From: a virus
Length of the DNA stretch: 59,163 bases
Strand: one strand, 5' to 3'
IMG/VR virus record: IMGVR_UViG_3300036770_001786
Coordinates: 1 to 59,163 of that record
Shown here: in pieces, positions 10,268 through 35,666 of the stretch
Layout: each line of letters starts with the position of its first letter
Position numbering within the stretch: position 1 is the stretch's first letter
Translations under genes and position numbers: made by a program
The notes under the pieces: generated by a model
The model's database searches: none
Seen by the model: the letters and a program-made list of their open reading frames with translations, nothing else
Told to the model about the DNA's origin: nothing

Positions 10268-10447
10268 CTACTTGGACTTCACACGGGCGAGAGCACCCGA
10301 GGAAGCATTGCCACGAGTGTTCGAGGACGACTTCTGCCCTTGACTACCCTTGGACTGCAGCGAGGTGCCATCAAGCTTAGCACCCATGGCGAGGCGGGCC
10401 TTCATACGAACCATCTCGCTCATTTGTTCTTGATCAGACGTTGCCAT
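10268..10447 (-). CDS. Hypothetical small basic protein (59 aa)
   Basis: ATG 10447 is preceded by AAGGAG at 8 nt. The track start at 10456 is less likely. Confidence 0.6.
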   Translation of the reverse strand: MATSDQEQMSEMVRMKARLAMGAKLDGTSLQSKGSQGQKSSSNTRGNASSGALARVKSK

Positions 10448-14294: not shown

Positions 14295-15720
14295 ACGGGT
14301 TCACCCTTTGCTGGCGTTGTTCGTCCTCGTCGTAGTACTCGGACTCGGGCGGCGGTGGGTCAATCGAAAGGAAGGTCAAGTCACGCAGCAAACGCAACGC
14401 CTGCGAAACTGTGTCGGTCAGGTCATCACGCTGCGACTCGGGGAAAGAGCAGACCTGCGACACCAACGGCTCTGCCCAATCACGCGGCTGGCCTCGGTGC
14501 TGCAGGGACTCGGGCACGTAGACGCGGCCACGAGCAATCACGTTGGCCACCAGATGCAAACGCTGCACCTTATCGGCTCGCCCAGGATTGTACGCACGGC
14601 ACGGGATACCAGCACGCTGCAGATCCTGAATGATCGAGATGCCTGCGGCCTTGTCCTCAACGAGCACCATGTCGACCTTCTTGCCCGGTTCGCCGTAGAT
14701 CGAGCCGTACTCCTCGATAATCTTGGGGCGAAGGTCGGGGTAGGCCAGGAAGTCCTCCCAACAGTCGATGAGCATGGCGCAGAAGGGCGAGTCGTCGTCA
14801 GGGCGAAAGATGCCCCAGACGCTGCACGCAGTCGGATCGTTGATCGTTTTCTCGGTGTACGCGCAGTCGTAGGACTGCAGCACGTAGATGAACTCGGGGA
14901 ATTCGCGATCGGCAGGCCAGAGGCGAAACCAGTCGCGCTTGATGATGCCGTAGTCCTCGGGGTCGATCACCTCGGCGTAAAGCTCCTGGCGTCCGATGCG
15001 CGTGCCCTCATACTGCGAGATGATTTCGTCCCTAAACGACGGTGCGAGATTCACGAAATTCTCATGCGTCGTGCCTGTGGTCAGGTAAGTGCGCTCATCT
15101 TCCATCAGTCGCCGCACAATGGGAATCGGCTTGGGCGTGGTAGTCACCACACCACGTGGACGAGTACCAAGACGCAGACCGAACATGAGGTTTGACCACA
15201 TCTCCTCGGCATTACGGAACTTGGCCAGCTCATCCACCCAGAATAGGTCGTGCTGCGGTCCCCGGAGTGTCTCGGGGTCATTGTCCGAGTAGATCGTGGC
15301 AATGGCACCGTTGGGCCACTCAATGCGTCTCTTAGATGGCACGAAAGTGGGCTTGCATGACGGGTGCGAGATGGCCAGGATGCCCGATTCGCCCTCAATC
15401 ATAACGTCGCGCGCATCGCCCGCGTCTTCCGCTATCAGTGCGATACGGGAGGCCAGCTTGTTTTCGACGTGATAGCGCACGAACTCGGCGCCGCATCGTG
15501 TTTTGCCCCACCCGCGACCGGCCAAAATGAGCCACGTTACCCACCAGTCCTCCTGAGGCACAAGCTGATTCGGGCGTGCCCAGGTCTGCCAATCATAGAA
15601 GAGTTCGACGACTTCAGGCGGAGTGAGCGAAGCGCAAAACTCCTCCCAGCTCTCGCTTTCAGGAATCTGTTTCTTCTTGCGTCTTTGACTTCGCGCTAAG
15701 CCGTTGGGCAAGACGATCAC
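14284..15720 (-). CDS. terL: Terminase large subunit
   Basis: Walker A LILAGRGWGKTRCGAEFV, FWVDELA, and a C-terminal nuclease half (SYDCAYT...LVEDKAAG...DDLTD). Resembles the GTA/Terminase_6 type TerL of alphaproteobacterial elements. GTG start. Confidence 0.9.
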   Translation of the reverse strand: MIVLPNGLARSQRRKKKQIPESESWEEFCASLTPPEVVELFYDWQTWARPNQLVPQEDWWVTWLILAGRGWGKTRCGAEFVRYHVENKLASRIALIAEDAGDARDVMIEGESGILAISHPSCKPTFVPSKRRIEWPNGAIATIYSDNDPETLRGPQHDLFWVDELAKFRNAEEMWSNLMFGLRLGTRPRGVVTTTPKPIPIVRRLMEDERTYLTTGTTHENFVNLAPSFRDEIISQYEGTRIGRQELYAEVIDPEDYGIIKRDWFRLWPADREFPEFIYVLQSYDCAYTEKTINDPTACSVWGIFRPDDDSPFCAMLIDCWEDFLAYPDLRPKIIEEYGSIYGEPGKKVDMVLVEDKAAGISIIQDLQRAGIPCRAYNPGRADKVQRLHLVANVIARGRVYVPESLQHRGQPRDWAEPLVSQVCSFPESQRDDLTDTVSQALRLLRDLTFLSIDPPPPESEYYDEDEQRQQRVNPYAI

Positions 15721-21921: not shown

Positions 21922-23133
21922 CTAGGCAGCTGCTGCCGCGAGTCCACCACGACGATAACGGCCTTTGAAGTCCACGGCGGGGTCACGCGAGCCCCGGAGA
22001 ATGCTTTCTGCGATCTCCTCGGGCGTCAACCCTAGCTGCAGTCCCCGAGTCGCTGCTTCGGTCGTGAGAGCCCTTCCGAGAGCACCCGCACCGAGCCCAC
22101 CGGGTGCCGCTGCCTTGTCCTTGCTTTGTTGAATCACCGGGCCTACGATGCTCTGCAATCTCTTCGTTTCAGCCGGGTGCAGGCTTTGCTCATATCCCGG
22201 AATCCGCGATTGGCGAGCGCGAAACGCGTTCAGCAGCTCCAGATACCCCGCTGCACCCATAGGGTTGTCAATCGCTCCCTTGGCGAGATTTCCGGTCGAG
22301 GCACTAATCATCTGATTGATCCGCTTGTCATACAGATCCGTGGTCCCCAACAGCTGAGACAGATACGCACGCGCGTCGTTCTCTTGCGCTAGTCGATCCC
22401 CTGGCATCCCGAATATCCGGTTGCTCAAACCTTCACTCGGAAACCCCGTACCCTTCTCACTGGTGGGCATCACATTCCTGAGTGATCCTTGAGCGTAGGC
22501 AGTGTTAGCGACGTTTAATGGACGACGCAACGCGTTACGGGAGGTGAGCGCATCAGCCACATTCAAATCCCCGGACGAGCGCATCAGGTCGTAAAGCATC
22601 TGGTATCCCTGGCTCCCCGCCCCCTCGGGCGCAGCAAGAGCACCAAAGTGCATAGGCCGAGGCTCGGGTCCCCCTGCGAATCGACCGAGGTGCAGATTCG
22701 CCATCATCCTCGTCACACCCGGATAAAGCTTCGGATCCAGGACGTACTTATCTTCGTCAATCGTGAAGTACTTGCGGTCGGATCGTAGGATGTCGTCCAT
22801 GCGATCGCCGTAATCTTTCGCCAGAGTACTCTGTGGGAAAAAGCGAACTCTTGAATTCAGCGGAAGTCGAGATCCGAGGGCAGGCTTCATCATCGAAGTG
22901 TCCGACATGTCCATGATGTCGGCTGCATACGGCTCACCCGAGGGCAGTTTGCCGAGCATCTCGTTCTCGGAGTAAAACTGCACGATCTCGCCGGGCGTCA
23001 TTCCCTCGGTCTGCTGTCGCTTGGCCACCGGTACCTTCGCCGATTCCGGCACTTGCCGCACTATCTCCTGGTGGGTCTTGCCAATTCCGGTCAAGAGATC
23101 TACAAGGGACATGGCACGCTTGCTCTTACTCAT
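21922..23133 (-). CDS. Hypothetical 403-aa protein ending FKGRYRRGGLAAAAA
   Basis: ATG 23133 is preceded by GAGGTG. It overlaps the HDAC-like gene end by 8 nt, which suggests coupling. I recognise no family. Confidence 0.75.
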   Translation of the reverse strand: MSKSKRAMSLVDLLTGIGKTHQEIVRQVPESAKVPVAKRQQTEGMTPGEIVQFYSENEMLGKLPSGEPYAADIMDMSDTSMMKPALGSRLPLNSRVRFFPQSTLAKDYGDRMDDILRSDRKYFTIDEDKYVLDPKLYPGVTRMMANLHLGRFAGGPEPRPMHFGALAAPEGAGSQGYQMLYDLMRSSGDLNVADALTSRNALRRPLNVANTAYAQGSLRNVMPTSEKGTGFPSEGLSNRIFGMPGDRLAQENDARAYLSQLLGTTDLYDKRINQMISASTGNLAKGAIDNPMGAAGYLELLNAFRARQSRIPGYEQSLHPAETKRLQSIVGPVIQQSKDKAAAPGGLGAGALGRALTTEAATRGLQLGLTPEEIAESILRGSRDPAVDFKGRYRRGGLAAAAA

Positions 23134-23950
23134 AACACACCTCATCGCAAATATTCAACGTCTGCAGGTGAATGTCGACCACTTTTTGCGTTGGGTGTGA
23201 GTAGCCACCTGCTAGATTCCACACCAGAGGCGTCTTGAAATCACGTGCTGCCTGGAAGATCGCCCGATCTCGCATCGCCAATTGCTCCATCGACAGGTAC
23301 CCCGCGTTGTACGGGTCCTGGTCCCAGGCGTCGGCGCCTGCCTGATAAAAAATTATACCCGGCCTGTAGTGGCTTAGCAAGTCCGACACCCACTGATGCC
23401 ATATGTTCTGTACCGTCCAATTCGCCATCTGCTCCTTGAACCCCCGCCCCCGGGTGATGTTGGTCACCTGCTTTTCGAGCCGCAGCTCCTCGATTATGTC
23501 ATCCGTCCCATCCCCCAGGTGCGCATCCCCGTCCAGAATCAGAATTTTGCCGGCCTTCTCCACCAGATCCGCAGCGGCGATCATAAGCCCGTTGAACGTG
23601 CAGTACCCATACCCGTTGTTGTAGTGTGCATGGTGGAACCCCTGCGAGGCCGAGCAGGTCACGATGCGGTTTTCGAGCGCGTGGCGGGCGGCGGCAAGGA
23701 AGGAGGCGTTTGAGTACCGAAGCGACTCGTTCACGCTCGGGTTCCTGTTCCCGAATCCGTTGACTGTGCGCTGCGAGAACACGTTGTGCACGTACTTCGG
23801 CTCATGTGCTCGCATGAACTGCTGATCGGAGAACGGCTCGAAGTCCGAGTGCGGGAACCGCATGGACTGGTCGACAAACATCGGGATCTTCGACAGCGAA
23901 ACGAAGTCGTAGGACGAGCGCTGCTTCGGGTGAAAGAATATGGGGGTCAT
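23126..23950 (-). CDS. Zn-dependent deacetylase of the HDAC / acetylpolyamine amidohydrolase (arginase-fold) family
   Basis: The catalytic motifs are intact: GFHHA, GYCTFNG, ILILDGDAHLGDGT, YQAGADAWDQDP and NLAGGYS. Confidence 0.8.
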   Translation of the reverse strand: MTPIFFHPKQRSSYDFVSLSKIPMFVDQSMRFPHSDFEPFSDQQFMRAHEPKYVHNVFSQRTVNGFGNRNPSVNESLRYSNASFLAAARHALENRIVTCSASQGFHHAHYNNGYGYCTFNGLMIAAADLVEKAGKILILDGDAHLGDGTDDIIEELRLEKQVTNITRGRGFKEQMANWTVQNIWHQWVSDLLSHYRPGIIFYQAGADAWDQDPYNAGYLSMEQLAMRDRAIFQAARDFKTPLVWNLAGGYSHPTQKVVDIHLQTLNICDEVCYE

Positions 23951-23982: not shown

Positions 23983-24012
23983 ATTATACCACGGACGATA
24001 TACCCAGGTCAA
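23983..24012 (-). promoter_or_regulatory. Sigma70 early promoter TTGACC-18-TATAAT
   Basis: The -35 at 24012-24007 contains the TGA stop of gene 24009..24263. The -10 is at 23988-23983. The leader carries CTATAGAGGACATACG. Confidence 0.7.
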
Positions 24013-24263
24013 CGGGGCTGCTTGTTCGCCCACAGTTCGAGGCACGTCTGCTCAAGCTCCAGGCCGGCGGGATTCGTCTTGAGTGCATCCTTATGCCCCA
24101 TGTTGTAGGCCTGGATAATGTCTTTGGGCATGTTCACCGCGCTGGGGTCAGGCGTCGCCATCAGCCGCTCAAAAGCCAGCACCGTGAGCAGCATCATGAC
24201 ACTACCGAAAAACGCCCCCATCCAGAAAGGCTCGTTCTTCATCTCCTGTAGCTCCTGTATCAT
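24009..24263 (-). CDS. Small membrane protein (one TM: WMGAFFGSVMMLLTVLAF)
   Basis: 84 aa with an ATGA overlap with the upstream gene. Confidence 0.7.
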   Translation of the reverse strand: MIQELQEMKNEPFWMGAFFGSVMMLLTVLAFERLMATPDPSAVNMPKDIIQAYNMGHKDALKTNPAGLELEQTCLELWANKQPR

Positions 24264-24565
24264 TCGATTACACTCGCTTTCGTAAGTTTACCATTCTCGT
24301 CGAATTCGACCTCAAGATTCGGCTTGAACGTACCCACCGAGCGTGCGCGACGATAATGCAGGGAAACGCTCCCTCTCTTGGCATTGCGGTCGATGCGCAC
24401 CTTGTACGCCAGATCGGCGGGCGCGGGCTTCACCCGGTGTGGAATCAGCGGCGTGAAGATCGGCGTGTCATCATCGACCCACTTCTTCGTCTGAACGTCG
24501 AAGTATTGAACTTCTGCTCCCTCTGCCCACTGCTTAATTACTTCCGCGTGCGGATGCTTCTTCAT
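24260..24565 (-). CDS. Hypothetical protein (101 aa)
   Basis: ATG 24565 is preceded by GGAGGTG at 6 nt. The longer track ORF (to 24676) has a Trp/Arg-rich, unlikely N-terminus. Confidence 0.65.
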   Translation of the reverse strand: MKKHPHAEVIKQWAEGAEVQYFDVQTKKWVDDDTPIFTPLIPHRVKPAPADLAYKVRIDRNAKRGSVSLHYRRARSVGTFKPNLEVEFDENGKLTKASVIE

Positions 24566-24770
24566 GTCTAACACCTCCGTTGGTCTCACTGAAAAGATCC
24601 ATTTGTCCACTATCCACTCGATCCACCTCATCAACCACCTCCATCTGTGCCTCACGTGTTGTAAATCGAATCCCACACTCCAAGCACTCGCGACGTCTAC
24701 GCACCGTGTTTACCGCATTTTGATAGGTCGTAGTCACGCGGGTGTCACCACCACAAGAAACGCATCTCAT
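24534..24770 (-). CDS. NrdR-like zinc-ribbon protein lacking the ATP-cone
   Basis: MRCVSCGGDTRVTTTYQNAVNTVRRRRECLECGIRFTTRE compares with E. coli NrdR MHCPFCFAVDTKVIDSR...VRRRRQCLVCNERFTTFE. It is only 78 aa, so no ATP-cone can be present. Confidence 0.7.
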   Translation of the reverse strand: MRCVSCGGDTRVTTTYQNAVNTVRRRRECLECGIRFTTREAQMEVVDEVDRVDSGQMDLFSETNGGVRHEEASARGSN

Positions 24771-25327
24771 TTGAATATCCTCACATGCAGAATTCGCTCG
24801 CAGATGATCTGCGTGGCGAAGTACAGAGACAGCTCCGGATGCATCTCCACCGATGCATTGGCGAGTTGGTTTATCGATTGCTCGATTCTAATCAGCACCT
24901 CCTTCGCGTGAATCCCCACCCCGTTATCCTGCAGGAAGTACGCGGCCTCGATCATGTCGGCGAGCTTCACAATCGTCTCGATCGGAGTCCCCTTCACCCG
25001 CATATGTCGTGCGTGATAGTCCGGGTCGGCGATCTTTTCCGCGTCGTTTATGATAGACTCACCACCCGCCTGCCGCAAGCACTCTTTGAAGGGCGACGCC
25101 AAGTCCCCGGTCTTGACCTCGATCAGGTCATGGAACATCGCCCAATGCATGAGTTCTAACCGCTGCTGCGGCACCTGGAGTCCGGGCCACTTGCCGTGCA
25201 GGGCGAGTTCCCCGGCCAGAATACAGACGTGGAAAGAATGCTCGGCCAGGGTCTGCGTGCGTGACGTCTGCACAATCTGCCACCGCTTCACATGGCCGGC
25301 GCGTAGCTGCTCAGTTAATGTTAACAT
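24767..25327 (-). CDS. datZ: HD-domain phosphohydrolase (YfbR-like), DatZ-like dATP hydrolase by context
   Basis: RWQIVQTSRTQTLAEHSFHV...AMFHDLIEVKTGDLASP carries the H...HD...D metal motifs. It lies in the same operon as the PurZ-like and MazG-like genes. Confidence 0.7.
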   Translation of the reverse strand: MLTLTEQLRAGHVKRWQIVQTSRTQTLAEHSFHVCILAGELALHGKWPGLQVPQQRLELMHWAMFHDLIEVKTGDLASPFKECLRQAGGESIINDAEKIADPDYHARHMRVKGTPIETIVKLADMIEAAYFLQDNGVGIHAKEVLIRIEQSINQLANASVEMHPELSLYFATQIICERILHVRIFK

Positions 25328-25571
25328 AAGAAATCACCTTGATTCGTTCGATCATGTCGGCCACCTCATCGGCAGACAGGTTCTTGTCGTACCCTTCCGT
25401 TTCCAGTCGTGCATAAAACTGCTCGGCTGCTGCCGTGAGTGCCGCATTCCAGGTGGCTACCGTCGCTGATACGAGCTTGAATCGCACCTCCGGCGTCTGG
25501 TCCGGGAATAGCACATTGAACCACCGATTGAACTGCACGTGTTTCGGGTCTACTACTGGTTCTGTGCTCAT
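25311..25571 (-). CDS. Hypothetical protein (86 aa)
   Basis: ATG 25571 overlaps the MazG-like stop (ATGA) and is preceded by GAGG. Confidence 0.65.
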   Translation of the reverse strand: MSTEPVVDPKHVQFNRWFNVLFPDQTPEVRFKLVSATVATWNAALTAAAEQFYARLETEGYDKNLSADEVADMIERIKVISYVNIN

Positions 25572-26053
25572 ACGTGCCTCATGATTCGGGTATTTGTGTC
25601 TACCGTCCATTCGCGGTGCTCGTTGATGTCCATCTTCTCGTTTACCGCCTTGTGAATGTCGATTCCGTTCATCGCCGCAGCGTCCAGAAGCAGAATCATA
25701 ACGTCGCCCAATTCGTGCGCAGACTTCGGGTTTCGCGCGTACTCGCCGAGTTCCTCGTAGAGCTTGAGTAGAACGTCAGCAGTGGACCGCCCCGGGAACT
25801 GTTTATCGGCCCAATCCGTCACCCGCTGCTGCAGCTGCCGAATGTCGGCCCCCGACCGCTTCGTGTAGGCGTTCACCGCCCGCGCTGCGAGTTCGCAATT
25901 CTTGTACGCTCCCTCCAACACCCCCAGGGTCGAGTGCCGCACCTCGAACGTCGCGATCATGGCGCCATTGGCGTCTTTAAGCTCGGTATCCTCCGCGTGC
26001 CACGGGGTGGGCGAGAGTTCTTTGGTGTGAAAATCCGATTCATACTTAGGCAT
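25568..26053 (-). CDS. mazZ: MazG-like nucleotide pyrophosphohydrolase, MazZ-like by context
   Basis: ATG 26053 is preceded by ATAGGAGGAATTTCA. The C-terminal half WADKQFPGRS..LLKLYEELGEY...ELGDVMILLLDAAAMNGIDIHKAVNEKM is the MazG EExxE/D helix pattern. Confidence 0.7.
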   Translation of the reverse strand: MPKYESDFHTKELSPTPWHAEDTELKDANGAMIATFEVRHSTLGVLEGAYKNCELAARAVNAYTKRSGADIRQLQQRVTDWADKQFPGRSTADVLLKLYEELGEYARNPKSAHELGDVMILLLDAAAMNGIDIHKAVNEKMDINEHREWTVDTNTRIMRHV

Positions 26054-27188
26054 TGAAATTCCTCCTATAAGTCCGCCACATTTCAAGAATTCGTTTCCGT
26101 CGATCCGTCGATTGCGTGCAGCCCCAGATGGTATCATCAATCTCCAGTACATCCGACTCGGTTGGCCCTAACCCGATCGCCGCAATCCGGCAACCCTCGA
26201 TTGATTCGATAGCGTTCACAATGCGAACGATCTCGGCCTCATCCTGCACATAATTTACGAAGTTCAAAAACACCCGATCCACGCCATTGTATCGAATAGC
26301 CTCCTGAATCTGGGTCTCGCTGAACGTGAACACCCGACGCGGTAGGTTCGTCACCGTGGTGTACTCCTGCGGCTGTCCGATATCGGTGAACGAGATCTCG
26401 CGCTGGTCATCATAGCAAGGTCCGCTCCACTCGGTGAGCTTCACCTCGGTACCATTGTCCGCGTAGCGATTAGCCACCCGGATCGGATAAGTGCGAGCGG
26501 TGCCGTAAACGTGAAAAGCGCTCCCGGATTTGGCTTTCATCACCTTGGTCATTGATACGCCAGCATCGGCCAGGATTTGCATCGTGCTCACATCGCGGGA
26601 GGTGGTGTAAGGATAGAACCCATGGTAGATCGACAGGCTGTAGCCTTGTGCGCCTTCGATCATCAGGTTCTCGGCCTTATCGACTAAATCGTGCCACTCC
26701 TCGGTGGTAACCACAAATTGCATCAAACCCGGGCAATGCGAAGCAACGTTCGGCTCTTCCACCCGACGATTGATCCGGTCGATGATCGCCGCACCTACGC
26801 CTTTTCGCGTAGAACCAATCTTGCCCGGGTTCTCGCTCTCGATCTGGCGGTGCCGTTCAAGCACGACCGCCGCATGAGGGTGAATGTAGAATTTAACCTT
26901 CCGCGCCTCGATGATGTCCTTGCACGCCGCCATCTCGGCCAAAAGCTTCTGGGGGTCGATCACCGAACCCGGCCCCAAGAGCACCTTATCACAGAAGTCC
27001 GACACGATCCCGAGCGCTAATTGGGTGTGCACGAATTTGCGGCCCTCCTTGTCGATGAATGTGTGACCCGCGTTGGGCGCCCAAGTCGTGATCACCGTGT
27101 CGTACGCGTGACGCTTAGCGAGCCACCCGACAAGAAGTCCCTTGCCTGTGCTGCCGTACTGCAGATCTAGTACTAAATCTATACGCAT
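26046..27188 (-). CDS. purZ: Adenylosuccinate-synthetase homologue, PurZ-like (N6-succino-2-amino-2'-deoxyadenylate synthase)
   Basis: PurA scaffold motifs are present: DLQYGSTGKG (PurA: QWGDEGKGK), PNAGHT, IGSTRKGVGAAI, IEGAQGYSLSIYHGFYPYTTS and TYPIRV. It is flanked by a family-A polymerase and by MazG and HD genes. Confidence 0.78.
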   Translation of the reverse strand: MRIDLVLDLQYGSTGKGLLVGWLAKRHAYDTVITTWAPNAGHTFIDKEGRKFVHTQLALGIVSDFCDKVLLGPGSVIDPQKLLAEMAACKDIIEARKVKFYIHPHAAVVLERHRQIESENPGKIGSTRKGVGAAIIDRINRRVEEPNVASHCPGLMQFVVTTEEWHDLVDKAENLMIEGAQGYSLSIYHGFYPYTTSRDVSTMQILADAGVSMTKVMKAKSGSAFHVYGTARTYPIRVANRYADNGTEVKLTEWSGPCYDDQREISFTDIGQPQEYTTVTNLPRRVFTFSETQIQEAIRYNGVDRVFLNFVNYVQDEAEIVRIVNAIESIEGCRIAAIGLGPTESDVLEIDDTIWGCTQSTDRRKRILEMWRTYRRNFNA

Positions 27189-27194
27189 TTGTGT

Positions 27195-29027
27195 TTATCC
27201 CTTTGCATCATACCAGTTATCGCCCAGTCCCCAGTCGCAGGTGATAGGTACCCGCAGCCCGATTGGGCATTCTTTTCCATCGAATGTTGTATATATATGC
27301 GCTATATGTTCCGCGTGCTCCTTCGAGTCGTTGTCTAAAGATATCCCCACTTCATCGTGCACGGTCAGCAGCAGCCGCCCGCATTCATGCTCAGCCAGAT
27401 ACTCGTGCAGCTCGATGAGCTTCTGCTTCATGCAATCAGCGGACGTTGCCTGATAAATAAGCCCCGACGCCTTGTGCACGAACTGCCCACCCGGAAACCG
27501 GATGTGCCGCCCCATGATCGAATGCACGAACCCCCGCTCCTTGGCGATACTGGACGCCTTCTGCGCCATGTTCCGCATCCCAGGATTCGCGGAGTGGTAT
27601 TTCTCGAACAGCTCCATCGCCTCGGGTCCCGCCTTGAGGTACACGTTCCCGTTCGGCCCGGTCTCCTCCGTGTACGGCAACCCGCACTCCTGCGCCAGCT
27701 TCCCCGACCCCATGTTGAAGGCCAGCCCCAGGTTAATCGCCTTGGAAGAGGGACCACCGGCGTATTGGGCGTTCCGGGGGATTCCGGTCATATCAGATAC
27801 TAGCTGGTGGAAGTCCAGATTCGGGTTATCCGCGTACGCCTTGATAATGGCCGGCACGTTCCCGTAGTGGTTCGCCACCCGGAACTCGAATTGCGACCAG
27901 TCCATACCGAGCCATTGAGCGCCGTGGTCGGCCAAGAAGATCGGACGAATCAACGCCTTGATCTCTTTATCCCGTGACGGTATCTGCTGCAGCGCCGGGT
28001 TCGTCACCGAGAGCCGTCCCGTGCCGGTCCCCGCTTCCGCGTCATTCTTGGTCTGGTTGTAATTGCAGTGGATGACCCCGTCGTGGTGGTGCCCCAGAAT
28101 GTGGCCCGACAGAAACGTGTCGCGCGTCTTGAGCATCTTGCGCAGATCCAGAATCATCTTGGCCGCAGGGTGTTTCATCCGCCGCAGGCACTCGGCGTTG
28201 ATCGACGCCTTTCCACCGTCGGTCTTGTCAGCCCGGGTGCCATCGATCAAGTACCATTCATTGTCATCGCGCAGCTCGGGCTTGAACAGTTCGGTGATGG
28301 ATCCGGAAGGGTTCGGGTTCACCTCGAAGCCTGCCATCTTATTCAGATCCCTCTGCATGATGTCGACCCGACGGGTAAGGTCCTCGACGGCCTCCTCGGC
28401 ACGCTCTACATCAACCCGCACGCCCTGCTGCTCCATGTCGATGATCACGGGCATTAACCGCTGCTCAAGGGCGTAGACCTGATGCAGACCCTGCCGCTCG
28501 ATCTCCTGCTCCTGCCACTCGTAAAGCGCGTAGGCCGCGACCACGTCCTGCTTGGCATAGGGTGCTACTACCTGCGCCGGCGCTTTCGATATGTTCGGCA
28601 TCTGTGCGTTCCGCGTGGCCCTCCCGCCGAAAAGCTTCGCCAGCTGCTCGTAGATCTCCTCTTCCTTCTTCTGCCCCGCATACTTGCGTGCCAAGAAGTC
28701 CAACGCGTAGGTGGGCTCGTGCTCGTTTATCAACGCGCCCCGGACCATCGTACAATGCAGCCGGTTCAAGGGCAGCACGATCCCCGCCTCACGCAGAAAA
28801 TGGTAATCGAACTTGATGTTGTGGTTCACCCATCGCGTGACCGCCTTCGACTCGGCGAGGTCCCGCAGGAAGTCCACCGCCGTGGGTGTCTGCCGCAGAT
28901 CCCAGTAGAAGGGCTCGACGCCCGGGAGAAGCAGCGACACACCGAAAACGCGGTCCTGCCACCATTTCAGCCCGGTGGTCTCGCAGTCGATCGTCACGAC
29001 TGTAGGGGAGTCAATACGGGGAAACAT
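27195..29027 (-). CDS. dpoZ: Family-A DNA polymerase with 3'-5' exonuclease, DpoZ-like by context
   Basis: Exo I IDCETTGL, motif A DWSQFEFRV, motif B SSKAINLGLAFNMGSGKL and motif C LLTVHDEV. ATG 29027 overlaps the TGA of the upstream gene, and the 48-aa track extension is out of character. Confidence 0.85.
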   Translation of the reverse strand: MFPRIDSPTVVTIDCETTGLKWWQDRVFGVSLLLPGVEPFYWDLRQTPTAVDFLRDLAESKAVTRWVNHNIKFDYHFLREAGIVLPLNRLHCTMVRGALINEHEPTYALDFLARKYAGQKKEEEIYEQLAKLFGGRATRNAQMPNISKAPAQVVAPYAKQDVVAAYALYEWQEQEIERQGLHQVYALEQRLMPVIIDMEQQGVRVDVERAEEAVEDLTRRVDIMQRDLNKMAGFEVNPNPSGSITELFKPELRDDNEWYLIDGTRADKTDGGKASINAECLRRMKHPAAKMILDLRKMLKTRDTFLSGHILGHHHDGVIHCNYNQTKNDAEAGTGTGRLSVTNPALQQIPSRDKEIKALIRPIFLADHGAQWLGMDWSQFEFRVANHYGNVPAIIKAYADNPNLDFHQLVSDMTGIPRNAQYAGGPSSKAINLGLAFNMGSGKLAQECGLPYTEETGPNGNVYLKAGPEAMELFEKYHSANPGMRNMAQKASSIAKERGFVHSIMGRHIRFPGGQFVHKASGLIYQATSADCMKQKLIELHEYLAEHECGRLLLTVHDEVGISLDNDSKEHAEHIAHIYTTFDGKECPIGLRVPITCDWGLGDNWYDAKG

Positions 29028-29287
29028 CAGAATGGGTAGTCGTCTTCGAGATCGTCGAGATTCTGCGCCTTCGGGGGTGCCTTGGGCTTCACCCCATCCT
29101 TCGGCTTGATCTTCAGATGGAAGTACTTCTGTCCCTCGATCTTGGAACCCTCTTTGCCCGTGTTCACCCAAGCCGACAGCCAGTAATCCACGCCATCGAC
29201 GTTGATTGAACCCGTAAACTCCGGATGCTTTTCGGTCTCGCGATTGCGATTCCGCATCAACATCCCGGTATTGGTATTATCGTACAT
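29027..29287 (-). CDS. Small protein with an SSB-type acidic C-terminal tip (DDLEDDYPF)
   Basis: 86 aa. A beta-rich core (FTGSINVDGVDYWLSAWVNTG..YFHLKIKPK) is followed by a Pro/Lys linker and a tail like SSB DDDIPF. First gene behind promoter 29322-29351. Confidence 0.6.
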   Translation of the reverse strand: MYDNTNTGMLMRNRNRETEKHPEFTGSINVDGVDYWLSAWVNTGKEGSKIEGQKYFHLKIKPKDGVKPKAPPKAQNLDDLEDDYPF

Positions 29288-29321: not shown

Positions 29322-29351
29322 ATTATACTGCCGGTGCTGCTATCCTGTCAA
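29322..29351 (-). promoter_or_regulatory. Sigma70 early promoter ACTTGACA-18-TATAAT driving the SSB-like / polymerase / Z-cluster operon
   Basis: -35 at 29351-29346 and -10 at 29327-29322. The leader carries CTAATAGAGGACTACCACA before the ATG. Confidence 0.75.
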
Positions 29352-29353
29352 GT

Positions 29354-30769
29354 CTATAATCTATAGCCGTTGTATCCCTCCACTATGTCCAGTATGTTCT
29401 TACTCCGAGTCATCCCCACGTAGAACACCCGTACCTCATCATCCGGATTATTTTCGGCGGTCTGCTGCACCCGCGTCGTCAGGTCGGTAAGCAGAATCAC
29501 GTGCTCGGCCTCACTACCCTTGGCCGAATGGATCGTGGATAGCCGCAGCGAAGGTACGCTGTCGAGATCCGCATCCATATAGAAATCCACCACCCGCGAT
29601 GGAATGTCGAGCTGCACATAGAACGGACGCGCCACCACCGACTTGTAATCGTTCTGGTCCAGCATCCTTTTGACCTCAGGTACCGCCAACGTCCAGAGCG
29701 CGTTGCGTTCAGTATCAGTGAGCGTCACGCCGCTTTCCATCTTGCGGAACGACCGGATACCGTTCGCTATCTTGTTCTGGTACATTCCGGGACGACCCGA
29801 CTCCCTAAGATACGGTATTCGGCGATCGATGAGCGAGCGCTCGACCTCACGCAGGACTGAGTGCGTCCGCGCCAAAAGTAGCGTATCGGTTCCCCCTTCG
29901 ATGTCCACCGAGTTGATCGAACCGTGTAGGCGTACCAATCCCACATGACCCTTGGAACTAAACTTCTTATCGACTCGGCGAAGGACTCGACGAATGAGGG
30001 CTTGAGATTTCTCGTAGACAGCAACAGGAAGTCGATGTGAGAGCGATAAAACTTGGCTAGTACCACCGTGTTTCTCACAGAAGACAGCCATACCATGCGG
30101 ATCTGCCCCTGCCCAAGTGTAAATCGCTTGGTCATCGTCTCCCGCAATGTGAACCTCATCTGCGCGTTTGCAGAAGCGGTCGATAACCTGCCACTGAAGA
30201 GGTGATAGGTCTTGAGCTTCGTCGACGAAGATAACCTCTGCATCCAACGAAACACCTCGCTTGATCGATCGTTCGAGCATGTCGGTGAAGTCGTAGTAAC
30301 CGTAGGTAGATTTCCAATCAGCGTAAGCCCGAACAAACATATCGAATTCCGCACGAGTTCCTGGTCGTTCGGATAAGTCGTACGCCATCGAGGGTTCCAT
30401 GAAGGTGTTTCGCGCGTTGTTAAGAATGTCAAGATAGTAGTCCCCGTCTGCTCTCTCTTCGTCATCCTCGGGTGATTTTCCGATTACCGGTATCCCGGTC
30501 GCTACCGAGAATTCGCGCAGCTTAATCGTATCCACCACCTGAGCCTGTTTTAAACGTAGATGCCTGAATGCCATCGCATGGATGGTGCTCACATTGTCGG
30601 ACTTCTTGATTCCGAGTCGTGAGAGCGCCTCATGGGCAGCGGCACGGGTGAACGACATAAATGCCACCCGCTCCGCTTGCACTCCTGCATCGCGCGTTTC
30701 TTGGACCCTCCGCAGCAGCTCGGTAGTTTTACCGGTGCCGGGAGGTCCGTAAATCGCTTCAACGCGCAT
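29354..30769 (-). CDS. SF1 (UvrD/Dda-like) DNA helicase
   Basis: Walker A GPPGTGKT, FVDEAQDL, IAGDDDQAIYTWAG, STIHSAKGSEAEHV and VGMTRSK. Confidence 0.85.
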   Translation of the reverse strand: MRVEAIYGPPGTGKTTELLRRVQETRDAGVQAERVAFMSFTRAAAHEALSRLGIKKSDNVSTIHAMAFRHLRLKQAQVVDTIKLREFSVATGIPVIGKSPEDDEERADGDYYLDILNNARNTFMEPSMAYDLSERPGTRAEFDMFVRAYADWKSTYGYYDFTDMLERSIKRGVSLDAEVIFVDEAQDLSPLQWQVIDRFCKRADEVHIAGDDDQAIYTWAGADPHGMAVFCEKHGGTSQVLSLSHRLPVAVYEKSQALIRRVLRRVDKKFSSKGHVGLVRLHGSINSVDIEGGTDTLLLARTHSVLREVERSLIDRRIPYLRESGRPGMYQNKIANGIRSFRKMESGVTLTDTERNALWTLAVPEVKRMLDQNDYKSVVARPFYVQLDIPSRVVDFYMDADLDSVPSLRLSTIHSAKGSEAEHVILLTDLTTRVQQTAENNPDDEVRVFYVGMTRSKNILDIVEGYNGYRL

Positions 30770-31518
30770 TAAAACTCGGTGTCGCTCGCTGGTGTTACTT
30801 CACCATCGAAGTCCGAGGAGACCTTCACTGCGCCGCCACGGATCGTATGGTATAGCTTCTCGGCCTTCTCGTACACATCCTTCGACACGAATCCGAGCGG
30901 GTGAACGGCGAAGTTATAGTAACTTTCATTCCGCGCATTCGTCTCGGTCGCCGCCGACAGCTGGTACGCCCGGGCAAACGAGTCGGTGTTGGTGAGTCGA
31001 ATGAGCGAGTTCCAACGCTTGCTCACCTTCATCTTGGACTTGGCCATCGAGATGACCGCCTCCTGCCAACCACCGTCCTTGAGCTTCACGAGCACAAAAT
31101 GCTGCGCCGTGTCCGTCACTTCCAGGCCTTCCTCACCCAACGCCGCGACTGCGTCATCGGCCTCGGATTTGGAATTGAATGCACCCCGGAACCCATTGCT
31201 CCCCCCGCCACCCACCTTCCGATCCTTCCAAATCAGATACTGCTTGGTGTAGAACACGGGGACCACCGTCACGGTCGAACCATACAGTTCGCGCGTCACG
31301 TTGTTGTAGAGCATACCCTCATCGGCCCCCTCAATGTAGGCCGAATCGTTCTTTTTGCGCGCCGGGGACAGCGCCTGAATCAGTTCGATTCGCGGGATAA
31401 TGAGGTCATCATTCCCCACGTTCTCGGCACCACGATTACCCTGTTTGATGTAATCGGGGATCTGATCGCCAACGATGATTTCGTTAGTCTCTACCACTGC
31501 TAATTGACCTTTGGCCAT
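30769..31518 (-). CDS. Hypothetical replication/recombination-module protein
   Basis: 249 aa with SD AGGAG. It lies between a coiled-coil protein and the helicase. A role in ssDNA binding or annealing is a positional guess only. Confidence 0.7.
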   Translation of the reverse strand: MAKGQLAVVETNEIIVGDQIPDYIKQGNRGAENVGNDDLIIPRIELIQALSPARKKNDSAYIEGADEGMLYNNVTRELYGSTVTVVPVFYTKQYLIWKDRKVGGGGSNGFRGAFNSKSEADDAVAALGEEGLEVTDTAQHFVLVKLKDGGWQEAVISMAKSKMKVSKRWNSLIRLTNTDSFARAYQLSAATETNARNESYYNFAVHPLGFVSKDVYEKAEKLYHTIRGGAVKVSSDFDGEVTPASDTEF

Positions 31519-31546
31519 TTTTAAAGCTCCTAGTTACATGATTAAA

Positions 31547-31564
31547 GACACGCCGGAGCGTGCC
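31547..31564 (-). terminator. Hairpin GGCACGC-UCCG-GCGUGUC followed by UUUAAU
   Basis: 7-bp stem (one G-U pair) in the 72-nt spacer 31519-31590. The short U tract makes this a weak intrinsic terminator or attenuator candidate. Confidence 0.3.
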
Positions 31565-31590
31565 ACGGTATCCGGCTCGCGCCGAATTCT

Positions 31591-32037
31591 TTACTCCTTC
31601 GTTATGCTTGCGCGCTCGAAGGGACTAATATTCAACAGGTCCTCAGGCGGGATCTCGCCTTCCTTGAACATCTTCTTGACCGAAGCCTTCAACGTCGACG
31701 CGTTCACGGTCTCCGAAATCAGATCGGTACGCCCGTTATCCCGCAGCCACTGGTAGAAGTCGTCCTTCTTGTCTGCCTTGATCGACACGTGCATGTCGGC
31801 GGTGATCGACACCCGACCCACACCCTTGACCGAGATCCGGTCGATGTTCTCGTCATTCATGACGGTGGGGATCTTGGTGATGCGCAAGAAGTCGAACGTC
31901 TCGTTCACCTCTTTAAGCGTCTCTTCGAGCGACTCCTTCTGCTTGCGCACGTCGTTCATTTCCATCACTAGATCTACAAGATCCATGCCGTCGTACTTGG
32001 CGAATTTATTATCAGTGGACAAGTTCGTTCTCCTCAA
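31591..32037 (-). CDS. Hypothetical protein with an N-terminal coiled coil
   Basis: The track start is a TTG at 32037. Because GAGGAG lies at 32035-32030, a TTG at 32022 is a better start. The stop is firm. Confidence 0.65.
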   Translation of the reverse strand: MRRTNLSTDNKFAKYDGMDLVDLVMEMNDVRKQKESLEETLKEVNETFDFLRITKIPTVMNDENIDRISVKGVGRVSITADMHVSIKADKKDDFYQWLRDNGRTDLISETVNASTLKASVKKMFKEGEIPPEDLLNISPFERASITKE

Positions 32038-32362
32038 TGCTTATGAATAGGGGTGCATACATCTGGTCGCGGGCGTTCCATTTCAATACCTGGAAGTGCG
32101 AGGTCTTCTCCCTCAAGATCGCGAACACCAGCCCCGTAATGACCGGCGAGCCACTCGGTGCGATGAAGTCGATCTCTTTGTTGAAGTTCTTCAGATTCTC
32201 ACGCAGCACGGCAATGACCTTCTTGTTGTGCACGCTATTCTTGAATTGCGACAGTTCTGACGCGGTGAGGAACACGACTTCACCAAATTGCTCGGCGGGT
32301 CCGTAGTTCGCGGTACGCACCTCTTGGGTCACGTACACCTTGGGCTTTGGTAAAAAGTTCAT
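32012..32362 (-). CDS. Hypothetical protein (116 aa)
   Basis: ATG 32362 is preceded by AGGAGATAGAGGACTT. Confidence 0.75.
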   Translation of the reverse strand: MNFLPKPKVYVTQEVRTANYGPAEQFGEVVFLTASELSQFKNSVHNKKVIAVLRENLKNFNKEIDFIAPSGSPVITGLVFAILREKTSHFQVLKWNARDQMYAPLFISIEENELVH

Positions 32363-32388
32363 AAGTCCTCTATCTCCTAAGAATCTAT

Positions 32389-32397
32389 ATTATAACA
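32389..32397 (-). promoter_or_regulatory. Extended -10 promoter TGtTATAAT just downstream of the SNF2 stop
   Basis: Minus strand reads ccgTGTTATAATatag. There is no good -35. Confidence 0.45.
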
Positions 32398-32401
32398 CGG
32401 G

Positions 32402-34138
32402 CTACGCATCCCCGAATAGATCGCTTGCATTCTTCTCGTTTATGCTCACTCGCACGAACTCCGACACGTCTTTCTTCTCCCGAAGTGCCTGTGCTACAAT
32501 AGAATCTACCGTTCCTTCGGCGATAATGTCAATGTAGGTTACTGACTTCGTCTGTCCTATGCGATGCGCACGGTCCTCGGATTGCTCACGGTCGGTGAAT
32601 GAGAACGAATTCGAGTAGTACACGACGGTCTCGGCCCGAGTCATGTTCAGCCCCACTCCACCGGTGGCCGCGTTACCCACGAGGAACCGCGCCCGCCCCT
32701 TCTGGAATAGCTCCTGCACATTATAATCGCGCTGCTCCTCCGAGATCTCACCATAGATCTGCACGACACTTTCTAGGCCATACTCATCCTGCAGTGCCTC
32801 AGTGACCATGCGGATCTCCTCGACGAATCGACACCAAATGATCATCGAGCCTTCGGTCTCCTCGCAGATCGCCAGAAGCTCCTCGACCTTGGGATTCCTA
32901 CCCCCGATTCTAGAGTGAGTAAACTTCGACCGATCGAACAGATCCGGGTTGCGCTCGAATGTGATCACACCCCCGGTGATCTCCTGCAACCGCAGCATCC
33001 GCTCCAGCACCGATTTGACCGTAATCCCCTGGTCGCCCACCACCGTCTGGTCACGTTTCGCGATGTCCTTGTATAGGCGCCGCTGCTCATCGGTCATCTG
33101 CACTTCTCGGGTCTCGTAGATCTTGGGCGGCAGCTCGGTCAGCACTTCGGACTTGCGCACCTGGAACACGAACGGCGAGATCAGCTCGATCAGCTCCTCC
33201 ATGTTCTGGTACCCGACGATCTCTTTGTTCTCGAATCCGCCCATTACCGCATACCGATTCCGGAATGAGTAGAAATCTCCGATCCCTAGTATATCCGGAT
33301 CTAGGCACTCGAACTGCATATATACATCCATGGGGCCATTCGCCACCGGGGTACCCGTCATGATCAGCCGGTAGGCGACCGACTTCGAGAGCTTCACGCA
33401 ATTGCGGGACCGCACCGCTGAGTGATTCTTGATCATGTGCGCTTCGTCCACGATCATACCCACCCGCGTGCTGGTGTCGACGAATTTTTGCGCGTAGAGA
33501 ATCGCATTGCCGGCAGCGAGTGACTCGGTACCCACAATAAGAATCTTCATCGCGTCACCGGTGCCCGTGTTCCATTCCTCGAACACCTTGGGCTTCGTGG
33601 TGTTCAGAATCATCACATCGGTATTTATCGGCGCATGAATGGCGACTTCGCGCTCCCAGTTCTTTCGCGTCGAGAACTTCGTGACGACCAGAAGGCGATC
33701 GACCTTGGAATCAAGAAAATAAGCCGAGAAGAGATCTAGCGCCGTCTTGGTTTTGCCGGTACCCATGTCCATATAGAAGGCGAACCCGGGCTTGCCGTAG
33801 GCGTGATTCAGCGCCCGCTGCTGGTATGGACGCGGCTCGGTCTTGAACGAATACTTGAACGGGAACTGTACGTTCTCGACCTTCCGACGCTCTAGTGACT
33901 CGACAGCCTTTTGATACGCCTTCTCCTCAAATGTGCCGCGATCAAACGCTCGAAGGAGATAATCACTATTAGAGCGGAGAACAGGAGCAGCCCAGACACT
34001 ACGACGAGCATCCCATCGCCGGTTAGGGACCTTACGAACTCGATCAACGAGCCAAGGAGGACAGCTAATAAGAAAACGACTTGACTTCTCATCGTAACTG
34101 ATCCTTAAATCAGAATTCGGTTTTAAATTCGGGTTCAT
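32402..34138 (-). CDS. SNF2-family helicase/translocase
   Basis: PYQQRAL, DMGTGKT, DEAHMIKN and QSEDRAHRIGQ. Confidence 0.9.
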   Translation of the reverse strand: MNPNLKPNSDLRISYDEKSSRFLISCPPWLVDRVRKVPNRRWDARRSVWAAPVLRSNSDYLLRAFDRGTFEEKAYQKAVESLERRKVENVQFPFKYSFKTEPRPYQQRALNHAYGKPGFAFYMDMGTGKTKTALDLFSAYFLDSKVDRLLVVTKFSTRKNWEREVAIHAPINTDVMILNTTKPKVFEEWNTGTGDAMKILIVGTESLAAGNAILYAQKFVDTSTRVGMIVDEAHMIKNHSAVRSRNCVKLSKSVAYRLIMTGTPVANGPMDVYMQFECLDPDILGIGDFYSFRNRYAVMGGFENKEIVGYQNMEELIELISPFVFQVRKSEVLTELPPKIYETREVQMTDEQRRLYKDIAKRDQTVVGDQGITVKSVLERMLRLQEITGGVITFERNPDLFDRSKFTHSRIGGRNPKVEELLAICEETEGSMIIWCRFVEEIRMVTEALQDEYGLESVVQIYGEISEEQRDYNVQELFQKGRARFLVGNAATGGVGLNMTRAETVVYYSNSFSFTDREQSEDRAHRIGQTKSVTYIDIIAEGTVDSIVAQALREKKDVSEFVRVSINEKNASDLFGDA

Positions 34139-35666
34139 CTAGTTTCACCTCGTAGTCTTCAGTAATGGGCGCCATCCACACATTGATCGTTTTGCCACCG
34201 GGGATCCGGATCTTGTCGTGATCCGCGTTGCAGTCACGCCTCAGACAGGTCCACAGGTCCATGCCGGTGAGCACTTCGGCCTTGTTGCGCTTCAGAAACT
34301 CCGAGAAGGCTGTTCCCTTGAAAACGACACACCGCGTCCCGTTGATCTCCTGCACCACCGGAATGTTGCGCAAAAGCGCCTTCCGATCGGCGGTATCCTT
34401 TCCGTCCCGGGTGAGGTCGGCCTTCTGCACGAACTCCTGGAACTTGGACTGAATCACCCCTGAAGCCGACGCCTCTTTTGGTACCTCAATCACCCGCAAC
34501 CCCGGTACTAGGGGGTCGAGGATCCGCTTTCGCCACGTCTCCTGGGTCATCTTCGGGATGTTAATCTTGAGCTGTTCAAAAATCAGCGTCCCCATAGCGT
34601 TCGGATCCCGCAGCACGGTGGTGGGGATATTGGGGATTAGCGTCCCATTCACGTGCAGGCCCCACCGGGGAGGCTCGGACCGGTATTCAATAAGCTCGGT
34701 GAACTGCGGCAGCGAGTCGTGCGCGTCCAGATCCTTCATCTCGTCCATCGAGATTCCGAACTCCCGGGTTACGCAGGTCTTGCGATCGCAGAGCGACTTG
34801 CACGGCTCCTCGGCACACTTGTATAAATAGTCCCGTCTGGACGCCGACCGAATGACCTTCTTGGCCTCCGAGGGTGCCATGGGTTTATCGAACATCGTTT
34901 GATTCAGCGCCATCGCGTCGTCGAAGAAGGTCTCAGGTCTCGCCCGCTTCAGGTACACCACCACGTTGTACATGGCGTCATTGCGAGCGCCCGACTCCAC
35001 CCCCGAGTGGATCATCTTCTGAATGCAGGGTGGCGCCTCCAGGTGCTCCCGCTGGAACAGGTCTTTAAGCTCGTCCTGCGACACCCGCTTGCTCTGGGCC
35101 AACCGTATGAACAGCTCGAACGAGATCGGGTCGCCAGCCTCGTCGAACCCGTACCGCTTCGTGTCTTTCACGTCGAAGTAGCACAGGTTAATCCAGTTCC
35201 CCAGCGCCCGCTCACCCGAGGAGGTCGCCAACGCGTCCTGCTTGGGGAAAATCTCGGTCTTGTGAGGGATTTCCAGCATATCCCGCCACGAAGTGAGGAT
35301 CCGCTTTACCTGCCGAGCATTCAGATACTCCGACCCGAATAGATACAGGTGGGCGCCCCCACGCTTGGTGCGGCACATCACTAGCGGAAGCCGGTATTCC
35401 CGGATCTTCGCGGCCACGGCCTTGAAGTCAATATCCTCGGGCGACTCGTGCTTGTCGATGTCGATGGCACCAAAGATACAGGTGTCACCGTCTGTGATCG
35501 GCACGATCCCGAGGCCCATTTTGCCATTCAGGTGGTCTTCGTACGCCTGCATCGGTACTTCACCCTTATGGGTGACCATGTCGCCCGTTTTGGGGTTCCA
35601 CTCCCCATACGAACGAAGGTTTCCGGCGAACAGCGCGGCGAAGTCCTGCGATAGATTACTTGCCAT
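34110..35666 (-). CDS. Archaeo-eukaryotic-type primase (AEP/prim-pol) with a PriCT-like domain and a long C-terminal extension
   Basis: Motif I FGAIDIDKH, motif II RGGAHLYLF, and PriCT-like PPCIQKMIHSGVESGARNDAMYNVVVYL. About 220 further residues could bind DNA. Confidence 0.8.
   Translation of the reverse strand: MASNLSQDFAALFAGNLRSYGEWNPKTGDMVTHKGEVPMQAYEDHLNGKMGLGIVPITDGDTCIFGAIDIDKHESPEDIDFKAVAAKIREYRLPLVMCRTKRGGAHLYLFGSEYLNARQVKRILTSWRDMLEIPHKTEIFPKQDALATSSGERALGNWINLCYFDVKDTKRYGFDEAGDPISFELFIRLAQSKRVSQDELKDLFQREHLEAPPCIQKMIHSGVESGARNDAMYNVVVYLKRARPETFFDDAMALNQTMFDKPMAPSEAKKVIRSASRRDYLYKCAEEPCKSLCDRKTCVTREFGISMDEMKDLDAHDSLPQFTELIEYRSEPPRWGLHVNGTLIPNIPTTVLRDPNAMGTLIFEQLKINIPKMTQETWRKRILDPLVPGLRVIEVPKEASASGVIQSKFQEFVQKADLTRDGKDTADRKALLRNIPVVQEINGTRCVVFKGTAFSEFLKRNKAEVLTGMDLWTCLRRDCNADHDKIRIPGGKTINVWMAPITEDYEVKLDEPEFKTEF

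Follow-up and report, generated by a model that had tools for sequence, protein, structure and literature searches.

We have analysed a virus record from IMG/VR (IMGVR_UViG_3300036770_001786), which is an entire JGI metagenome contig of 59,163 bp and is referred to below as the window, with respect to a minus-strand gene cluster whose products are predicted to replace adenine by 2-aminoadenine (Z) in the phage DNA. It is very probable that this uncultured ~59 kb phage carries a complete Z-genome operon of the phiVC8/SH-Ab 15497 type, and a comparably high probability is attached to the phage making Z-substituted DNA. The encoded proteins strongly predict that Z takes the place of A in the virion. 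The pathway, its four enzymes and the gene arrangement are already published, and knowledge of the pathway is left unchanged by the present sequence. With the window, a complete genome becomes available from a clade of uncultured phages of 55-59 kb which are predicted to have Z-DNA and appear to be widespread, together with a PurZ subclade without a cultured member and divergent PurZ, DatZ, MazZ and DpoZ sequences which are useful for enzyme work. A ribbon-only relative of NrdR and an HDAC-like amidohydrolase are additional candidates for accessory roles.

The four Z-pathway genes

An initial annotation of the window had placed a DpoZ-like polymerase, a PurZ-like synthetase, a MazG-like protein and an HD hydrolase in one operon. 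All four are identified here, tightly packed on the minus strand, with positions 24767-29027 extending exactly from the stop codon of the HD hydrolase to the start codon of the family A polymerase. In the order of transcription they are a family A DNA polymerase of the DpoZ type which includes a 3'-5' exonuclease domain (27195..29027; 610 amino acids, aa), PurZ, a homologue of PurA (26046..27188; 380 aa), a MazZ-1/DUF550-type (d)GTP pyrophosphohydrolase (25568..26053; 161 aa) and a DatZ-type HD (YfbR-type) dATP triphosphohydrolase (24767..25327; 186 aa). In a Pfam scan of the operon proteins all scores exceeded the curated cut-offs and were far beyond chance, with DNA_pol_A at 166 bits, Adenylsucc_synt at 125 bits and YfbR-like at 51 bits. 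Among solved structures, the polymerase is best matched by phiVC8 DpoZ (7pbk, 1.9e-136), the next being the Klenow fragment (3e-36), and the synthetase by S-2L PurZ (7odx, 8e-80, 272 bits). S-2L MazZ (7ody, 6e-11) is the sole match of the pyrophosphohydrolase, and the HD protein is closest to S-2L DatZ (6zpa, 2.3e-15) with Escherichia coli YfbR behind at 7e-8. Comparison with two related metagenomic contigs, L001 and L014, gave ratios of nonsynonymous to synonymous substitution (dN/dS) of 0.03-0.24 in every gene of the transcription unit. The genes are under purifying selection and are therefore working genes rather than remnants. Residues were compared in alignments with reference enzymes from phage records.

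The start codon of DpoZ is the ATG at 29027, in agreement with the JGI gene call. All three insertions which characterize the phiVC8 clade are present, as are R440, L455, F459 and G548, the latter three being located in motifs B and 6, and the E1/E2 segments, which form extended helices, align without gaps (clade insertions and residue features as described in PMC8599892). The polymerase motifs are intact, and the exonuclease domain matches PF01612 with the motifs DCETTGL, NIKFD and YAKQD readable. The enzyme is predicted to prefer dZTP, the triphosphate of the 2-aminoadenine nucleotide, over dATP.

DatZ is assigned by PHROGs to phrog_7076, annotated as 'dATP triphosphohydrolase', at 1.5e-30. 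The alignment contains all of the HD metal ligands (H34, H66, D67 and D119) and the phosphate contacts R19, K81 and K116, K81 being the K of SPFK after correct reading of an alignment gap. The specificity residues W20, I22 and P79 are likewise present, in a protein which carries the segment RWQIVQT. W20 contacts the deoxyribose and I22 excludes the 2-amino group (PMC8065100), and a restriction-enrichment study of aquatic viromes observed the W20-I22 pair only in dZ-enriched contigs. The window DatZ would be expected to be specific for dATP and inactive on dZTP and dGTP.

MazZ matches PF04447 (dATP/dGTP pyrophosphohydrolase, dATP-dGTP_PPHyd, formerly DUF550) with 39.1 bits against a cut-off of 23 bits. 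All eight of the residues inspected are present, the catalytic E34, E35, E38, E50, D53 and R83 as well as I56 and D60, which contact guanine (residue roles from PMC8342488), and the protein is therefore of the MazZ-1 type. An additional N-terminal region of ~66 aa (25856-26053, minus strand), with the sequence MPKYESDFHTKELSPTPWHAED..., lies ahead of the MazG domain and is conserved and without a family match; SH-Ab 15497 and K21lambda1 instead have a DUF5664-type domain fused to DUF550, which is unlike this region. N-terminal fusions are reported to be frequent in MazZ-1 proteins (PMC8342488). A conserved open reading frame (ORF) of 86 aa without an assigned function, ORF86 (25311..25571, minus strand), lies between mazZ and datZ. 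It is conserved in L001 and L014, with dN/dS within the range of 0.03-0.24 given above, and no Pfam or PHROG match was obtained. A second candidate for MazZ, namely ORF86 as a MazZ-2 resembling the 86-aa p26 of phiVC8, was rejected as the two proteins have no similarity.

Predicted pathway and extent of replacement

The proteins encoded in the operon are consistent with the Z pathway as summarised previously (PMC12884076, PMC8342488). After infection, the host sigma-70 RNA polymerase would transcribe the unit from a promoter at 29351-29322. MazZ, being of the DUF550 type, would convert dGTP to dGMP, which PurZ would join to aspartate, with ATP, to form dSMP, N6-succino-2-amino-2'-deoxyadenylate, and host adenylosuccinate lyase and host kinases would complete dZTP. 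DatZ would destroy dATP, and DpoZ, together with the small single-stranded DNA-binding protein (SSB) and the UvrD-type helicase, would copy the genome with dZTP, proofreading by DpoZ involving backtracking which is predicted to be readier at A:T pairs than at Z:T pairs. The expected outcome is 2-aminoadenine in place of A in the virion DNA and a partial shield from host restriction.

Several observations weigh against this interpretation. The source is a metagenome assembly, which cannot report Z, and the host steps (adenylosuccinate lyase and kinases) are assumed. In DpoZ the third insertion is 5 aa shorter than that of phiVC8, and S583 in motif C is replaced by E, the sole exception among the mapped residues and the same residue as in the DpoZ of SH-Ab 15497. 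In addition, four 6-bp palindromes, CTCGAG, GAGCTC, CGGCCG and CCGCGG, are entirely absent from the window although 16-21 of each are expected, and CTCGAG and GAGCTC contain A. Palindrome representation, taken as a sequence proxy for Z protection, shows weaker avoidance in the window than in its capsid relative without Z genes, MW202545.1, with observed/expected ratios of 0.83 versus 0.63 for A/T-containing 6-bp palindromes and 0.70 versus 0.29 for those composed of G and C only. Furthermore, in a study of restriction enzymes (PMC12944874), which gave no data for the enzymes of the four absent palindromes, approximately half of the enzymes tested still cut dZ DNA. On that account the missing palindromes are not evidence against Z; rather, since the A-containing CTCGAG and GAGCTC are still missing, restriction protection, if present, would be incomplete.

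The avoidance of some A-containing sites could also be taken to indicate that the cluster is active but that A is replaced by Z only partially or conditionally, producing mixed virion DNA. In accordance with such a mixture, conversion of E. coli DNA to Z by datZ, mazZ and purZ alone was only partial (PMC8342488), a result which also counts in favour of the Z pathway. The window, by comparison, has DatZ and DpoZ among its four components, a complete set which is shared with phages described as fully substituted (PMC12884076), and all four genes are under strong purifying selection. Partial replacement is considered quite unlikely.

Identity of the synthetase

The motifs which the initial annotation had quoted from the PurA homologue, LQYGSTGKG, NAGHT, GSTRKGVG and EGAQG..YPYTTS, are all found in the translation. 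Behind S-2L PurZ, the protein matched phiVC8 PurZ (6fm1) at 2e-66 (228 bits), with the 'PurA-like' 7vf6 at 3e-30 (109 bits), archaeal PurA at 5e-29 (105 bits) and bacterial PurA at 1e-20 or weaker (at most 77 bits), and its PHROGs family is phrog_1211, '2-aminooxy adenylosuccinate synthetase'. At the position of the catalytic Asp13 of PurA the window protein has Ser13, the P-loop reading GSTGKG compared with GSEAKG in PurZ0 and GDEGKG in PurA. The TTVT loop (T277-T280) is retained where PurA has GATT. The pair which stacks on ATP, F310/Y313, corresponds to F295/Y298 of phiVC8, positions which are occupied by M or F and then Q in PurZ0 and by K and V in PurA, the latter within the GTP-type TKLD motif, which is replaced by FLNFVNY in the window protein. 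The roles of these residues, including stacking of the F/Y pair on the adenine of ATP, have been described (bioRxiv 10.1101/2025.10.22.683976; PMC8342488).

A phylogeny of the synthetase against PurZ, PurZ0 and cellular PurA, proposed as a check in the initial annotation, gave a concordant result. The neighbour-joining tree (335 columns, 200 bootstraps), in which PurZ0 is represented by three sequences and Salmonella PurA is the sole cellular outgroup, with no archaeal PurA, places the window protein inside the PurZ clade with 100% bootstrap support and the PurZ0 sequences in a separate clade, also at 100%. Within PurZ, it falls in a subclade composed of metagenomic sequences only (96% bootstrap). 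We infer that the synthetase is PurZ and predict that it makes dSMP from dGMP, aspartate and ATP.

These data bear directly on two other explanations of the cluster. The synthetase could be an auxiliary PurA which boosts AMP production from IMP, with the MazG and HD proteins performing nucleotide-pool housekeeping in a phage with ordinary ATGC DNA. Pfam indeed assigns the synthetase only to Adenylsucc_synt, JGI names it adenylosuccinate synthase, and phages commonly carry HD and MazG genes. This explanation is nonetheless very improbable and is excluded on four grounds: Asp is changed to Ser, the GTP motif is lost, bacterial PurA scores far below PurZ and the tree places the protein in PurZ; moreover, the HD protein retains the dATP-specific W20/I22 pair. 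A PurZ0-type pathway as in the Wayne-like actinophages, which uses GTP and the helpers DutZ, DmtZ and DUF5664 and in which a phage PurA homologue also adjoins a family A polymerase, is scarcely credible, being excluded by the P-loop, by F/Y rather than M/Q at the nucleotide site, by the separate PurZ0 clade, by the presence in the polymerase of L455 and G548, which are said to be lacking in Wayne-like DpoZ (PMC8599892), and by the absence of DutZ and DmtZ partners, as domains of dUTPase, NDT, thymidylate synthase and other proteins of nucleotide metabolism were not detected by Pfam in the other early-region ORFs scanned.

The purZ gene itself (26046-27188) differs from its neighbours in its divergence. 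It is 69% identical to the counterpart at 11837-12967 of L001 with a synonymous divergence (dS) of 1.66, whereas the adjacent dpoZ and mazZ share 91-92% identity with those of L001 at dS of 0.8-0.9. As purZ diverges more than the genes on either side, recombination is suggested to have swapped purZ alleles within the lineage.

Operon layout and transcription

The initial annotation had described the operon as led by a protein with an SSB-type tip, a view which is supported by the presence of a promoter directly ahead of the SSB-like gene. This gene (29027..29287, minus strand) encodes 86 aa which match phrog_18154 and phrog_7364, both annotated as SSB, with the acidic C-terminal tip DDLEDDYPF. 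SH-Ab 15497 encodes a 99-aa 'ssDNA binding protein' with a similar acidic tip, to which the window protein shows 33% identity (E=3e-16). The promoter (29322..29351, minus strand) is a 12/12 match to the sigma-70 consensus, TTGACA-N18-TATAAT, and is followed by a conserved leader, AATAGAGGAC, and ATG; the Z operon likely starts from it. On the minus strand it is next followed by a promoter-like site at 24012-23983, an 11/12 match located upstream of the HDAC-like gene. Given the positions of these two sites, the Z genes appear as one nine-gene transcription unit in which the SSB-like gene is first. Beyond datZ the unit comprises an NrdR-type zinc ribbon gene without an ATP-cone (24534..24770; 78 aa) and two small conserved ORFs, one near the end of the unit (24260..24565; 101 aa) and one which ends it (24009..24263; 84 aa), all on the minus strand.

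The genes are closely spaced or overlapping. SSB and DpoZ share a TGATG junction with an overlap of 1 nt, DpoZ and PurZ are separated by a gap of 6 nt, PurZ and MazZ overlap by 8 nt, MazZ and ORF86 are joined by ATGA, ORF86 and DatZ overlap by 17 nt and DatZ and the zinc ribbon are again joined by ATGA. A ribosome-binding site, AGGAGG, is located 8 nt upstream of mazZ. The arrangement of the junctions suggests translational coupling of the genes.

The promoter at the head of the operon is one of six perfect 12/12 sigma-70 consensus promoters in the window, all on the coding strand, where ~0.02 are expected by chance. The others on the minus strand are at 21512-21484, 21059-21031, 19464-19435 and 18696-18668, and also at 8943-8914. 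A shared cassette is observed in five of the promoters, consisting of CTTGACA, N17/18, TATAAT, ~25 nt, AATAGAGGAC, 6-9 nt and ATG. Such promoters occur at 5-6 per 20 kb in related Z contigs, and none is present in the non-Z capsid relative MW202545 (57 kb) or in Caulobacter phage RW over its first 50 kb. They could constitute an early-gene promoter family, and any connection with transcription of Z-DNA is speculative. One such connection could be that perfect consensus promoters help the host RNA polymerase to open a -10 region composed of Z:T pairs with three hydrogen bonds.

NrdR-type ribbon and genes downstream of datZ

The NrdR repressor consists of an N-terminal zinc ribbon and an ATP-cone which senses ATP/dATP, and it binds NrdR boxes. 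The 78-aa ribbon protein of the window matches Zn_ribbon_NrdR (PF22811) with 37.7 bits against a cut-off of 27.2 bits, contains the motif CxxC...RRRRxCxxCxxRFTT and weakly matches NrdR in the PDB, and no ATP-cone match was found in it. By its domain content the protein is a ribbon-only relative and not a true NrdR. A search of the window for NrdR boxes, ACACWATATWTWGTGT with at most 3 mismatches, returned 0 matches with 1.1 expected by chance, so that there is no evidence of the ribbon acting on canonical boxes in the phage genome.

Downstream of the unit, an HDAC/acetylpolyamine-amidohydrolase-like protein (23126-23950, minus strand) matches PF00850 at 8e-33 with the catalytic HH, DxH, GAD and GGY readable. 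Its gene has the near-consensus promoter noted above as its own and adjoins the Z operon in relatives as well. It is followed by a gene for a 407-aa protein without a family match (21922-23145, minus strand). In one relative this protein is 42% identical while the flanking genes are 92-100% identical, and it is therefore hypervariable.

The ribbon, the HDAC-like gene and the variable 407-aa gene occur after datZ in the window and in four related contigs, L001, L014, L016 and L020, and are missing from the more distant contigs L017, L021 and L022 as well as from those cultured Z phages that were examined. The cone-less ribbon could mimic or antagonize the host repressor of the ribonucleotide reductase genes while being blind to dATP. 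If this were the case, the ribbon would keep the deoxynucleotide supply, and hence dGTP for dZTP, high while DatZ removes dATP, and the dATP taken by DatZ would be the very signal which NrdR normally reads. That the lineage-specific additions and the run of promoters are functional parts of the Z lifestyle as opposed to passengers is, however, rather unlikely.

Relatives and known Z systems

No match was obtained in a near-identity DNA search of the operon among 50,697 phage records, and thus there is no close cultured relative in that collection. The closest cultured PurZ proteins, which include those of S-2L, the Klebsiella phages K21lambda1 and VLCpiS6a and the Acinetobacter SH-Ab 15497 group, are 40-44% identical, and the closest cultured DpoZ proteins 48-51% identical, with SH-Ab 15497 and K21lambda1 at 49-51%. 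Metagenomic sequences are closer: a 22.5-kb contig encodes a PurZ which is 97% identical and a 58-kb contig a DpoZ and a PurZ which are 91% and 69% identical, respectively. A total of 1,983 metagenomic homologues were found at E<=1e-10; the best 120 of the 1,983 are nearly all 50-69% identical, and several of these 120 are located on contigs of 55-59 kb. One relative, L001, initially appeared to lack DatZ, as the corresponding 151-aa gene had no Pfam hit. This was rejected, since tblastn revealed a 78%-identical DatZ and the gene call was truncated.

The relatives have a module in common which consists of AEP primase, SNF2 helicase, Pam3_gp32-like, DUF7307, Pam3_Gp34-like, UvrD helicase, small SSB, DpoZ, PurZ, DUF550 and DatZ. 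Its order is nearly matched in SH-Ab 15497, K21lambda1 and Burkholderia phage BCSR129, with a partial match in Vibrio phage phiVC8, and the same cassette occurs in phages stated to have ZTGC genomes. In the window, the replication genes upstream of the operon (29354..35666, minus strand) encode the AEP primase, SNF2 helicase, Pam3_gp32-like, DUF7307, Pam3_Gp34-like and UvrD-type helicase proteins, and SH-Ab 15497, K21lambda1 and BCSR129 have homologous genes in matching order.

The suggestion in the initial annotation that the arrangement is new does not hold in view of this synteny, the UvrD helicase, SSB, DpoZ, PurZ, DUF550/MazZ and DatZ genes being syntenic with homologous genes in SH-Ab 15497, K21lambda1, BCSR129 and phiVC8. 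With nearly the same gene order in the first three of these phages, the window arrangement is a minor variant of the published one. Its proposal of an NrdR-like ribbon as a new feature survives in part, in that the ribbon is specific to the lineage and absent from the cultured Z phages examined while the overall arrangement is not new. Similarly, the proposal of a new lineage is upheld to the extent that there is no close cultured phage, but relatives which share the module are numerous in public metagenomes.

Comparison with individual Z phages reveals where the window differs. SH-Ab 15497 and vB_Kpn_K21lambda1, together with Salmonella phage PMBT28, resemble it in DUF7307, the Gp34-like protein, the UvrD/PcrA helicase, DpoZ, the acidic-tip SSB, PurZ, DUF550/MazZ and DatZ. 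In this group, however, the SSB gene is located after dpoZ and not before it, and MazZ carries a long DUF5664-type domain in place of the short unmatched N-terminal region. The window in addition has ORF86 between mazZ and datZ and the NrdR-type ribbon and HDAC-like genes after datZ, its genome is 59 kb compared with 43-48 kb and its structural module is unrelated. An SSB gene ahead of dpoZ is shared with phiVC8 and BCSR129. phiVC8 is further similar in DatZ, in the PurZ specificity residues and in a DpoZ of the clade with three insertions and L455, F459 and G548, but it differs in having a primase gene between dpoZ and purZ and an unrelated MazZ-2, and identity is only ~41%. Cyanophage S-2L has the same purZ-mazZ-datZ order with overlapping junctions and provides the top solved structures for PurZ, MazZ and DatZ; unlike the window it has no DpoZ, using a non-selective PrimPol and relying on DatZ (PMC8065100), and its MazZ is without an N-terminal extension.

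Structural module and genome organization

The structural genes have a different affiliation. The major capsid protein, portal and large terminase region (6560-7474, 10434-12977 and 14284-15720, minus strand) are 90%, 61% and 50-59% identical, respectively, to those of the uncultured virus MW202545.1 from Manatee Spring, and several tail genes are common to the window and Caulobacter phage RW. In tblastn searches with the Z-operon and replication proteins of the window, nothing was detected in MW202545 over its full 57 kb, and Caulobacter phage RW, covered over its first 50 kb, gave only a weak SNF2 match (20%). As the relative with the 90% identical capsid protein lacks Z genes, the capsid module to which the Z cassette is joined in the window is one that elsewhere accompanies ordinary DNA. 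At least seven groups of Z phages have been reported, mostly linked to non-Z phages of related hosts (PMC12884076), and the combination of a Z cassette with a non-Z-type capsid module agrees with published work in which the Z trait is considered to spread in modular form.

The first and last 126 bp of the contig are identical (1-126 and 59038-59163), an exact terminal overlap through which the contig closes into a circle, and the phage genome is most likely complete at 59,037 bp. Nearly all genes are carried on the minus strand, and no tRNA genes were found in the window. Two large ORFs are present, one of 1,403 aa at 40809-45020 without a family match and one of 1,777 aa at 50934-56267 (minus strand) without a Pfam or PHROG match. 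Around the latter the G+C content falls from about 56% to 43-47%, and the 1,777-aa ORF may encode a recently acquired host-range or tail protein.

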